Shown in pieces: positions 956 to 47,074 of a DNA stretch of 64,000 nt; positions within the stretch are counted from its first letter, which is position 1; every line of letters starts with the position of its first letter. The DNA comes from Eledone cirrhosa (lineage: Eukaryota). The stretch spans positions 22,568,001-22,632,000 of the forward strand of contig OZ024758.1 in the NCBI GenBank assembly GCA_964016885.1. Reading direction: 5' to 3'. Position numbers and translations under genes: made by a program. A model generated the notes under the pieces. It saw only the letters and a program-made list of their open reading frames with translations, made no database searches and had not been told where the DNA came from.

Positions 956-1150
956 AACGAAGGAAATGTGGTAAGGAACCAGGTGGACCATAACGCACCA
1001 AAGTACTCAATACTTAGGGTAGTAGAGTGGGTAATAGGAACGAGTAGGACCCCGACGGCTGAGCTCAAGCCGTTTAGACGGCTAATTGAGTCTAGAATTA
1101 GCCGTCGAAATGGCTTGAGCTCAGGCGTCGGTGTCCTACTCGTTCCTATA
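956..1150. mobile_element. Family A TA-embedded fold-back element (other copies 7360-7783, 14068-14205, 46003-46240)
   Basis: Shared sequence AACGAAGGAAATGTGGTAAGGAACC...; inverted arms; carries the 3' half of a hammerhead (GAAAC-ggcu..agcc-GUC). Confidence 0.75.
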
Positions 1151-1210
1151 TATATATATAGAGAGAGAGATATAGTTGAAAATTGCAAACTTGACTGTCA
1201 CCACAGAATA

Positions 1211-1249
1211 TGAACCTGAAGATTGCGAAAGCATGAAAGTACTTGTTCA
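1211..1249 (+). ncRNA. Minimal type I hammerhead ribozyme
   Basis: ugaac-CUGAAGA-u-ugc(gaaa)gca-u-GAAAG-ua-CUU-guuca; palindrome AAGUACUU. Confidence 0.78.
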
Positions 1250-1630
1250 ATTAATACTTAACATTTAATATTCTACCATACTATTTCATTCTAATACCAT
1301 TATAATTTTAAAGGATTGTAAATAAAACTAGTAAATCAGACAAAGTTGGAATTCATTTTATTTATATATATATATATATATGATGGCTGGAAATTCTGCT
1401 ACGAGTTTGCAATCGCTTGTCAGGTTATAGAGTTTGATGCACTTTTAGGCTACGGCCAGCCACACGAACCTGTAACAGACCCTGAACAAGCAATGCCTGT
1501 GCTTTGAAGGTGTTTTAAGTGGGGAAAGGCCTTGCACTCGACCAATCCCACTCTCTGAGCATCGCAAACACTACCCTCATCGGATGCGTGTGTGTGTATA
1601 TATATATATATATATATATATATATATATA

Positions 1631-1743
1631 ATTGTTTCTACTTTTGGCACAAGGCCAGTAAATACCCAGTGCATTACTGGTACTTTATTTTATCGACCCC
1701 GTAAGGATGAAAGGCAAAGTAAACCTCGGCGGGATTTGAACTC
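1631..1743 (-). mobile_element. tRNA-derived SINE, 5' truncated
   Basis: Shared core CTGGTACTTTATTTTATCGACCCCGTAAGGATGAAAGGCAAAG and B-box GATTTGAACTC. Confidence 0.85.
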
Positions 1744-1759
1744 GTATATATATATATAT

Positions 1760-1980
1760 AATGAAAAATTGAACGGGAACAAAACAGAGAGGCAGTACAA
1801 ACAAATGTTTATTAATTTCACGCTCTTGAGAGTGGGGTGGTGGTGGGGAACGACGTTTCGGGCATAAGCCCTCCTTCAGGTGAAAGGTGTGTGGGAAGAG
1901 AGTTCAAAGGGTGTGTAGGGGAGTGGTGGAGAGACATATAGCAAAAAGAGGGTGAGAGGAAACGGTGCAATTGAAATTAA
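1760..1980 (-). mobile_element. Family B TA-embedded pLTR-like remnant with minimal hammerhead (about 1850-1882); other copies 13195-13400 and 14957-15120
   Basis: Minus strand CUGA(A/G)G(A/G)-gggc(uuau)gccc-GAAAC-GUC followed by AAUAAA; three dispersed copies. Confidence 0.7.
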
Positions 1981-2042
1981 AATATATATGTGTGTGTGTG
2001 TGTGTGAGAGTGTGAGTGTGTGTGTGTGTGTGTGTGTGTGTG

Positions 2043-44213: not shown

Positions 44214-44417
44214 TGTTGTGGTTGCGTTTGCTGTGTGGGTTGCTCGACTTTACAGGAGGTAAATATACAGTATTTTCCGTTGTGTTGTAATATAAATATT
44301 ACACACAGTAGATTATCAGCTCACGTAGAGTTTGCTCGACGGTTCCAGTTGTAGTTCCAAAAGTAATCCGGAGAAAAATAGAAAGATTTGAATGGATACA
44401 GTTTAGTTGAAAGGAAT

Positions 44418-44537
44418 TTATTGACACGTGTTTCTATAACAGTTACGTAACCTAAAACAGCTGCTATCTACAAACTTTTAGTTATGCAGACATTCAATAT
44501 TTCAATGTTATTATTTACTGTCATCTCATCAGAATAA
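44418..44537 (-). ncRNA. Type I hammerhead ribozyme in the 5' pLTR, with long stem II
   Basis: uuauu-CUGAUGA-[ugacagu...acuguua, about 90 nt]-GAAAC-acgu-GUC-aauaa; palindromic stem III (ACACGUGU). Confidence 0.8.
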
Positions 44538-45688
44538 TATTACTGAGGACCTATACTGTATATATATAAAATATATATATATATATATAAAATATATATA
44601 TATATATATATATATATATATATATAAAATATATATATATATATATATAAAATATATATATATACATACATACACATATATGTGTGTGTGTGTGTGTGTT
44701 AGTATGTATGTATATATATATACATACATACTTACACTCTTTATATATGTATATATATATACATACATATATATATACATACATATATACATACATATAT
44801 ACATACATATATATATACATACATACATATATATATACATACATATATATATACATACATATATATATACATACATATATATATACATACATACATATAT
44901 ACATACATACATATATATATACATACATATATATATACATACATATATATATACATACATATATATATGCATACATATATATATACATATATATATATAC
45001 ATACATATATATATGCATACATACATATATATATACATATATATATATACATACATATATACATACATATACATATATACATACATATACATATATATAT
45101 ATATATATATATATATATATATATACATATATATATATATATACATATATATACATATATACATACATATACATATATATATATATACATATATATATAT
45201 ATATATATATATACATATATATATATATATACATATATATATACATATATATATATATATACATATATACATATATATACATATATACACATATATATAT
45301 ACACATATATATATACATATATATATATATATACCTATATAAAGAGACACATATAAAGGGTATTAGAATTTGATGGAAAGACTAACGAAAAAGCGATAGA
45401 TAGAGAGAATGCAAGAGAGAGAGAGAGAGACAGAGAGAGAGATGAGGAACAGAATAAATAAAGGTTACATTTCCTCGCCTCCTTCTGTGGAATGGGTGGA
45501 GATTATTTCCTATGTAAACAGACCACAGATAAAGGGACTTATAGCATCTAAAACATGAATTTCCATTCTTTTAATATTTATATTATACACGTTTTCTGTC
45601 CACAGAATTACAAAAGCAAGCGACGTCTTGGAGAAGCCGTTTATATGGAATATAATTTACAGACGTTAAAAGACTGATATTGACAGCA

Positions 45689-45755
45689 ATGTCACATGTT
45701 AAGTTGCAGCTCCTCTGTTGGGCGATTCTGCCTCTTTTATTCTTCGTTTCCACAG
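45689..45755 (+). CDS. Quiver/sleepless-like Ly6 three-finger protein, coding exon 1 (signal peptide)
   Basis: MSHVKLQLLCWAILPLLFFVST + G, then the donor CAG|GTAAGT (phase 1); TTGACAG just before the ATG may be an acceptor from a non-coding upstream exon. Confidence 0.8.
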
Positions 45756-46451
45756 GTAAGTGGAGGAATTTTGCATACCTATTTATACACACTAATACAA
45801 ACACACACATATATATTTATATTTATGTGTATATATATATATATATATATATTTTTTTTTTAAATATTTATGTGTGTGTGTGTATATATATATATATGTT
45901 TCCACACACACATATATATATATATATATATATATACATATATATATACATCTATGTATCCATCTATCTATATATATCTATATATCTATATATATATATA
46001 TATAGGAAGGAGTAGGACCCCGATGGCTGAGCTCAAGCCGTTTCGACGGCTAATTCTGGACTAAAAAAAAAATAAAAAAGAAAATTGATTTTTTTTTTAG
46101 TCCAGAATTAGCCGTCGAAACGGCTTGAGCTCAGTCGTCGGGGTCCTACTCGTTCCTATTACCCACTCTACTACCCTAAATATTGAGTACTTGGGTGCGT
46201 TATGGTCCACTTGGTTCCTTATCACATTTCCTTCGTTATATATATATATATATACGATATTAATAAATGGAAACTATATTTATAAAACCATATTTATTTC
46301 ATTATACATATTTCAGGGATACCAAATTAAATTATGGTATGCCTTCAGACAAAATACAATATATAACAGTTTTACAAATAAGCTTTGACGTACCCTATTA
46401 AAATGCAACCATTGTTTTTGGAAGCCATCCGGTAAAACTGTTATATATTGT

Positions 46452-46514
46452 ATTTTGTCTGATGAAGGCATACCATAATTTAATTTGGTATCCCTGAAAT
46501 ATGTATAATGAAAT
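46452..46514 (+). ncRNA. Type I hammerhead ribozyme, family C, sense-oriented in an intron of the Ly6 gene
   Basis: auuuugu-CUGAUGA-agg.auacca...ugguau.ccu-GAAAU-augu-AUA-augaaau. Confidence 0.8.
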
Positions 46515-47074
46515 AAATATGATTTTATAAATATAGTTTCCATTTATTAATATCGTATATCTACTCCAAATACTTGTCGAGTGCTTTATATCAGTTATAA
46601 AAATATTTACTTGTTGTATCCCAACAATTTTAAATAGAACTTTTGCATATATATATATATATATATATATATATATATATATCAATGATATTAATAAATG
46701 GAAACTATCTTTATAAAACCATAAAGATAGTTTCCATTTATTAATATCATTGATATTATAGTCCAGAAGAATACTGTAGAGTGGCTCGAATGTATTATAA
46801 ATACATTTGTTGAATATATATATATATATGCATATATTTATATATATATGTATATATGCATATATGTATATATATATATATGCATATATTTATATATATA
46901 TATGCATATATTTATATATATATTTGCATATGTATCTGTATGTCTCTTGGCTGAAAAGGAGGTCATATAACTGTCCATTCATTAATAAATTGCTCCGAAG
47001 AATCCAAACCTCGGTTTGGAGGAAACAGCTGTAAGCACAAAAATGTTTTGAACAGTTCTTTGATTCTTATATTT

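Follow-up and report, generated by a model that had tools for sequence, protein, structure and literature searches.

A conserved bulged RNA hairpin beside the insertion ends of Hydra-clade Penelope-like elements in Eledone cirrhosa

The window analysed here is a stretch of 64,000 nucleotides (nt) of the Eledone cirrhosa genome (contig OZ024758.1, positions 22,568,001 to 22,632,000). It holds a coding retrotransposon of the Penelope-like element (PLE) type together with short islands that abut TA microsatellites, and a nine-base motif, YYGAGTRCT, recurs close to the TA-abutting end of many of them. The original prediction took this motif for a second conserved cis-element beside the hammerhead ribozyme, shared by unrelated repeat families. 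It is shown below to be one strand of a bulged RNA hairpin, which is considered in relation to the points where these elements insert.

Hydra-clade elements of the window

The coding element at ~40.8-44.5 kb is a member of the Hydra clade, as judged from the RWK, DKT and CxCx5C motifs of its predicted protein. These motifs define the Hydra clade of PLEs with a C-terminal endonuclease, according to the available text of Craig et al. (2021, PMC8557442). The leader of the element contains two copies of the hairpin, hairpin 1 and hairpin 2, and its copies stop at either of two insertion ends: a short end next to hairpin 1 and a long end next to hairpin 2. The features of the window copy are the following:

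41839-44213, minus strand: open reading frame (ORF) of the Hydra-clade PLE, encoding a reverse transcriptase (RT) plus a GIY-YIG-type endonuclease at the C-terminus, with RWK, DKT and CxCx5C; frameshift near 43209-43221
44500-44532, minus strand: hammerhead core pattern (CUGAUGA...GAAA) of the 5' pseudo-long terminal repeat (pLTR), a pattern match
44335-44373, minus strand: hairpin 1 (CTC-CGG...CCG-TC-GAG); short end 7 nt upstream, last base 44381
44243-44258, minus strand: hairpin 2 (CTC-CT-GTAA-AG-TC-GAG), 29 nt before the ATG
44268, minus strand: last base of the long end, 9 nt upstream of hairpin 2
40828-40979, minus strand: 3' pLTR with hammerhead core at 40947-40979; it stops at the short end, with no hairpin and no tail

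The genome contains at least 114 near-identical copies of this element (94-100% identity), and an intact sister copy (L114) carries a single ORF of 773 amino acids, whose product is referred to as P0001. This protein exhibits R37-W38-K39 and D121-K122-T123, the latter being a DKG changed to DKT. Among 98 homologs, R37 is conserved at 98%, W38 at 97%, and D121, K122 and each of the linker cysteines C631, C633 and C639 (CxCx5C) at 100%; R35, R37 and W38 are near-invariant, and the conserved endonuclease-type residues are Y652, Y665, G667, R676, E735 and N748. The predicted fold (mean pLDDT of 89.1) has its best structural match in telomerase RT, over residues 1-480: residues 2-419 of the model align with residues 252-749 of Candida telomerase RT (Z-score of 17.4, rmsd of 3.3, 290 aligned residues), a stretch that presumably includes part of the RNA-binding domain. 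A Pfam search of two pieces of the window ORF returned no match, and no relatives were found in the viral contigs searched. Rfam did not call the hammerhead of the coding element; its core pattern matches at the two positions listed above. An assignment to Naiad was ruled out on domain order and motifs. Six variants of the nine-base motif gave three matches in published Naiad and Chlamys consensi, apparently in coding sequence, against four in Hydra termini, in a search where line breaks can hide matches.

The short motif-bearing families that were traced are, by homology, ends of diverged coding Hydra families. Families A (site 1002 and others) and B (site 46577 and others) continue into ORFs whose products share 46% and 48% identity with P0001, at odds with the idea that the motif families are unrelated. 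At loci L043 and L067, the ORF, the hammerhead core and the exact motif occur in one element, with the motif after both. A non-LTR retrozyme, made of tandem hammerhead units with no coding parent, was rejected for families A and B and those of L043, L067 and L199, all of which lead to Hydra ORFs.

From a nine-base motif to a bulged hairpin

All ten main motif sites reported previously are present at their coordinates and on their strands. A strict search for YYGAGTRCT in the window yields 15 matches; for 12 of them, the same strand carries a (TA)n run 37-76 nt downstream. Five matches at 7406, 7613, 7728, 14115 and 46183, all in family A, had escaped notice, and those at 32820 and 42834 (the latter inside the ORF) are unrelated and have no TA run nearby. 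Wherever hammerhead cores are present they lie upstream of the motif on the same strand, as had been proposed. Across 78 other genome stretches of 10 kb, a TA run is found 30-79 nt downstream of 38 of the 58 motif matches, versus 84 of 1738 for 60 permuted motifs. A second, held-out set of 60 stretches of 10 kb was de-duplicated so that each repeat group counts once: the motif occurs in 14 of 289 junction clusters, versus a permuted mean of 0.63 (maximum of 6 in 100 permutations) and 4 in the reverse orientation. The positional and strand enrichment asserted by the original prediction thus persists in a fresh set once families are de-duplicated. Genome-wide and weighted by copy, forward matches number 59,100, versus 904 for a comparable backwards control.

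The motif corresponds to the 3' arm of an RNA hairpin with a bulge, RCUC-stem-loop-stem'-UN-GAGY(RCU). In most families, (A/G)CTC is found upstream of it, followed by a short stem, family-specific in sequence yet with its pairing kept, and then by T-N-GAG-(T/C); the YY of the motif is really U-N, and its TRCT is a variant of YRCT. A linear 9-mer was rejected as the unit, since GCTC/GAGC variants outnumber it in other organisms. In an independent 600 kb, a hairpin descriptor matches 18 of 289 junction clusters, versus 2.0 (maximum of 5) for the 23 other two-G/C triplets, 1.33 for shuffled and 5 for reversed sequences. A U in the bulge is needed for this enrichment: there is no excess with a non-U bulge (5 versus 4.4), nor with bulges of 0, 1 or 3 nt. 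Of the looser variants proposed earlier, TCGAGCAA at 44332-44339 is a true member, whereas CCGAGCA at 819 and 37470 possesses neither the U bulge nor the upstream CTC stem and was discarded.

Pairing of the two arms was examined with the CTC anchor alone, present in 24 of 36 multi-copy clusters, and with no pairing required for entry. In this genome 54 of 96 stem cells are Watson-Crick, versus 33.2 when the arms are permuted, and the closing pair of the 24 clusters is A-T in nine and G-C in six. The four G-U and ten A-C cells of this set are both below their permuted means and do not discriminate between the strands. A metagenome scan provided 78 Hydra loci of other organisms, at ~35% protein identity; 46 of them include the 5' end and form 40 clusters at 80% identity. 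The hairpin is found in 24 of the 78 5' regions (63 long enough) versus 0.7 in controls and in 11 of the 78 3' regions (54 long enough) versus 1.0, with no excess in the ORF interiors (9 versus 5.3); reverse-complemented ORF interiors match in 27 loci, a count that has no matched control. CTC lies 7-27 nt upstream of 61 of the 69 motif sites. In 48 distinct hairpins of this set, 99 of 144 stem cells are Watson-Crick versus 53 permuted, 12 are G-U, and only two are A-C versus 15.7 expected. The frequency of G-U and the rarity of A-C favour the sense strand as the folded molecule and disfavour the antisense strand as template. By eye, the hairpin is also found in the published consensi Hydra-2_Amil (coral) and Hydra-2_Ajap (sea cucumber), and twice in Hydra-1_Ajap (sea cucumber).

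These data bear on the explanation by shared ancestry or chance, in which the hairpin would be a neutral relic or a pattern picked out post hoc among AT-rich repeats. The motif was indeed chosen after the fact, and a few families dominate the copy counts. Against this stand the cluster-level enrichment in the fresh set, the 40 distinct clusters from other organisms, and stems that change in pairs while their flanks are unalignable. This explanation is already largely refuted and hardly credible.

The hairpins of the other families of the window are distributed as follows:

1006-1027, minus strand: hairpin 1, family A, with TT bulge and an inner stem of 4 bp; long end 957, inverted short end 1146
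3157-3174, plus strand: hairpin 1, its bulge a single U; related to the coding copies in L067
3923-3940, minus strand: hairpin 1, family B, one stem mismatch (stem intact in sister copies 27657 and 46577); hammerhead core 3992-4033; fails the strict stem test
5798-5823, minus strand: hairpin 1, degenerate, with a broken stem that is intact in relatives such as L036 and L153
6425-6483, minus strand: degenerate long-loop hairpin 1, CTT for CTC; by eye, missed by the descriptor; relative L184 has CTC
7009-7028, minus strand: GCTC/GAGC-type hairpin 1, not matched by the 9-mer, with the short end 6 nt upstream
7410-7431, minus strand: hairpin 1, family A
7596-7617, plus strand: family A hairpin 1, within a partial internal duplicate
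7711-7732, plus strand: hairpin 1, family A
10765-10789, plus strand: hairpin 1, 5-bp inner stem, TT bulge; RNAfold prefers an alternative local fold
11616-11694, minus strand: hairpin 1 with long loop (CTC-TGTAT...ATACA-TT-GAG); the inverted copy has its short end 5 nt upstream
14119-14140, minus strand: hairpin 1, family A
27661-27678, minus strand: hairpin 1, family B; hammerhead core 27743-27783
27968-27976, plus strand: motif variant with no CTC partner in a short copy; membership uncertain
46166-46187, plus strand: hairpin 1, family A; long end 46236, inverted short end 46005
46564-46581, plus strand: hairpin 1, family B; hammerhead core 46459-46499; long end 46646, inverted short end 46255

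One family (window 3157-3174; L067 and L063) exhibits a 1-nt U bulge in place of UN. Some hairpins harbor loop inserts of 50-75 nt (L199-L218; window 11616-11694 and 6425-6483) with the bulge and closing helix kept, which suggests that loop size is free. Rfam searches of window positions 44150-44550 and of seven loci from other organisms returned no relevant match, a 20-nt hairpin being near the detection limit, with the sole exception of an antisense Hammerhead_1 in L263; over the whole window, microsatellite matches dominate.

Two hairpins and two insertion ends

In 29 of 45 leaders from other organisms, two motif sites 54-82 nt apart precede the ATG. The usual position of hairpin 1 is 46-67 nt beyond the hammerhead core, and that of hairpin 2 is 16-37 nt ahead of the ATG. 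In the family of the coding element, the short end lies 7 nt before hairpin 1 (838 forward matches running from the end into TA) and the long end 9 nt before hairpin 2 (682 forward matches); the controls gave none, in agreement with insertion into (TA)n. From these offsets, a hairpin 2 not yet seen was expected immediately beyond the long ends of families A and B. It proved to lie 7 nt (family A, 352 matches) and 9-10 nt (family B, 116 matches) past those ends, followed by Hydra ORFs, and a third family shows a 7-nt offset in one copy, by eye. In most of the families that provide data, short ends concentrate 6-9 nt before CTC; there is scatter, and some other modes occur. In six of 37 alignments from other organisms, a second copy runs straight into (TA)n, 1-5 nt before CTC (four at hairpin 1, two at hairpin 2), the TA bases shared with the target being counted to the element. 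TA starts at positions -9, -8 and -7 before CTC in 16, 18 and 26 of 60 hairpins of these organisms.

The constant is therefore the 7-10 nt that separate each junction from the next, uncopied hairpin. The distance of 38-78 nt between motif and TA that had first drawn attention is there (37-76 nt), but it is not set by the motif: a fixed motif-to-end distance was rejected, since the distance varies with the spacing to the second hairpin.

This register also bears on a role of the hairpins in expression, as an internal promoter, a TAR-like elongation signal or a device for cap-independent translation after hammerhead cleavage, with the ends nearby only because the RT starts at UA there. The position of both hairpins in the leader, hairpin 2 close to the ATG, speaks in its favour, as does the U-N-G-A-G / C-U-C core, which fits the bulge layout of HIV TAR. 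The 7-10 nt register of each end to its own hairpin, across spacers of 54-82 nt, is left unexplained, as is the TA peak at -7, and little probability can be granted to this role. The covariation and the tight link to insertion ends likewise speak against the plain internal promoter element of the original prediction.

In the first 42.5 Mb of sequence C1, all nine outward-facing end pairs within 10 kb, among the 14 short and 12 long ends listed, associate a long with a short end. In 1.44 Mb there are 904 islands between TA runs; fold-backs account for 124 of these, and 112 of the fold-backs are asymmetric. The tails of these 112 exhibit CTC within their first 16 nt in 68 cases (at 7-10 nt in 50), and the motif is present as well in 60. 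Either the long or the short end can be the inverted one. An inverted copy with a one-sided tail is a known PLE pattern in the available portions of PMC8557442 and PMC3846280; here it is tied to two copies of one hairpin.

A different reading of the same offsets is that the hairpins direct RNA 3'-end formation, by cleavage or termination, just 5' of each of them, the two kinds of RNA being then copied by end-primed target-primed reverse transcription. This would account for the same 7-10 nt, and in PAc, a Poseidon element of Anolis, the ends of RNA-seq reads coincide with RT start sites (Frangieh et al. 2024, PMC11167929, available text). Since one RNA cannot end at both sites, the two ends would be drawn independently, and about half of the pairs should be long-long or short-short; none of the nine is, and symmetric fold-backs amount to 12 of 124. 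Moreover, the PAc RT initiates internally, at two sites bounding the tail, and requires RNA 3' of the start (PMC11167929). RNA 3'-end formation is thus an unlikely explanation.

It is still less probable that the motif is read as DNA, in the element's own pLTR, either double-stranded or as an opened sense strand, by an endonuclease cutting TA 7-10 nt away, which would drive tandem arrays. The endonuclease of D. virilis Penelope required the tail for recognition (as cited in the available text of PMC11167929), GAGYRCTC forms a degenerate palindrome, with C at position +5 in 36 of 60 sites, and tandem copies ~3.5 kb apart exist. Recognition of double-stranded DNA would not, however, require a covarying stem, and dispersed insertions in plain (TA)n, a motif-free target, show the same ends.

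Several further observations concern these families. Family A (957-1146, 7528-7781 and 46005-46236; L297-L308) lacks a canonical CUGANGA hammerhead core. In its fold-backs, the centres of inversion are concentrated around a single position ~65 nt 5' of the short end, which suggests a fixed RNA 5' end. The family also forms head-to-tail four-copy arrays with a period of ~3.5 kb (C1:91476593-91487267 and 437200343-437210983). The window also contains a family-B-like fold-back at 46683-46813, whose hairpin reads GTC for CTC and whose tail measures just 61 nt. One-sided tails that lack the Hydra hairpin, of at least three types, occur in other fold-back families, which may belong to other PLE clades with their own start signals:

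L038:4833-5352, L144:1855-2040 and window 53777-54048: first tail type
L084:1524-1949 and L165:5600-5701: second tail type
window 532-850: third tail type

Finally, a short dispersed repeat resembling a tRNA-derived short interspersed nuclear element (SINE) has 12 copies in the window, often beside TA runs and some in tandem, at 1693, 2104, 3297, 3505, 17853, 23611, 38192, 57488, 57754, 59873, 61185 and 61610.

Proposed mechanism and known systems

The second conserved cis-element put forward by the original prediction is supported. Of the functions then considered for it, recognition by the RT is the best candidate, and the setting of a priming distance did not hold. Each of the two leader hairpins likely anchors the RT of the element, copying starting at a UA 7-10 bases 5' of it, a proposal drawn from sequence comparison. 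The RT protein, probably dimeric, would bind the two hairpins of a single RNA molecule, and the endonuclease would nick both strands of the (TA)n target. Each nicked 3' end would anneal to the UA beside one hairpin and prime a cDNA, and the two cDNAs, differing by the spacer, would be joined head to head. Priming at hairpin 2 would yield a copy with hairpin 1 and the spacer, that is the Hydra "tail", and priming at hairpin 1 a copy with neither. The motif would have been visible earlier only in the tail because only the hairpin-2-primed copy includes hairpin 1.

A number of results weigh against this proposal. The helix is weak: folded in their wider window context, only three of 13 sites have a pairing probability above 0.5 and five are at or below 0.03, hairpin 1 of the coding element itself being among these with 0.00. 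The hairpins of other organisms score above 0.5 in 56 of 60 cases, but when folded with just 10 flanking nt. Four of the ten main sites (3919, 5794, 6421 and 27968) fail the strict stem test in their window copy, hairpin 2 often has just one or two inner pairs, and the permutation tests ignore relatedness and shared descent. The motif site is absent from seven of the 45 leaders and single in nine, a clear hairpin is wanting, by eye, in three of six published Hydra consensi, and the early CTC is missing from 44 of the 112 asymmetric tails, some of which are of other types. The patterns used to read through the long ends of families A and B required the hairpin, so that no share of copies with hairpin can be derived from them.

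PLE RTs are the closest relatives of telomerase, and the hairpin makes two questions directly testable, namely how they recognize their RNA and how the one-sided tail arises. It offers a defined 20-nt candidate common to this genome, to other marine animals and to the published coral and sea-cucumber consensi, with a sharp prediction: when the hairpin is shifted, the start should shift with it. The hairpin pair also provides a rule for calling the boundaries of Hydra elements, and many short hammerhead islands become truncated ends of coding elements.

In LINEs (long interspersed nuclear elements) and in SINEs, a short stem-loop near the priming site recruits the LINE RT; it sits 5' of that site and is copied. 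The Hydra hairpin differs in being 3' of its own start, in not being copied by that priming and in being paired with a second one.

Another resemblance concerns the arginine sandwich motif of HIV TAR and 7SK, with its U23.A27-U38 triple in TAR (Pham et al. 2018, PMC6189040; PMC7864049, available portions). At the level of secondary-structure layout, the Hydra hairpin shares with them a bulged U followed by G-C, A-U and G-C pairs. It also has the arginine sandwich arrangement, in which a bulged pyrimidine lies two steps 5' of a stem pair and a Watson-Crick pair immediately precedes the bulge; a purine stands just before the bulged U in all 48 distinct hairpins from other organisms. Unlike in TAR, the loop closes the other side of the bulge, and no shared ancestry is implied. 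The link to R35, R37 and W38 of P0001 would be one of analogy only. By this analogy, it is conceivable, if somewhat doubtful, that an RT dimer grips two TAR-like arginine-sandwich hairpins on one RNA through the R35/R37/W38 helix, which is conserved and belongs to the telomerase-like N-terminal domain, each subunit priming one (TA)n strand 7-10 nt 5' of its hairpin. If so, a twin-anchor, double-first-strand mechanism would have left its direct footprint in the PLE tail and in the head-to-head ends, and the 20-nt hairpin with its UA would serve a telomerase-related RT as a portable "start here" tag.

The closest known system is the Hydra clade itself, for which the available text of PMC8557442 describes the same RWK, DKT, CxCx5C, C-terminal endonuclease, pLTR hammerhead and (TA)n targets. 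No mention of the conserved hairpin, of the hairpin pair or of its register to the ends was found in those portions. More widely, no description of the hairpin was found in the portions available of the literature searched (including PMC8557442, PMC11167929, PMC7229834, PMC4209133, PMC3846280 and bioRxiv 10.64898/2026.07.22.740005), a coverage from which most subscription papers and the Repbase reports were absent. The hairpin is a real and conserved cis-element of a known retrotransposon clade, and apparently an unpublished one. The tail described in PMC8557442 measures 30-40 bp and is ascribed to endonuclease resolution, while here it measures ~65-115 nt and corresponds to the step from hairpin 1 to hairpin 2.

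Each general step of the mechanism proposed for Hydra is supported in vitro by PAc, for which extension of both target strands is also described and a dimer predicted (PMC11167929, available text). According to the same source, initiation by PAc takes place in an AC-rich stem-loop that lies within the ORF and shares no homology with the target, whereas Hydra would start at a UA matching (TA)n. The binding motif of PAc is mapped there only to 172 nt, whereas the proposed Hydra starts are each followed by a copy of one defined hairpin.

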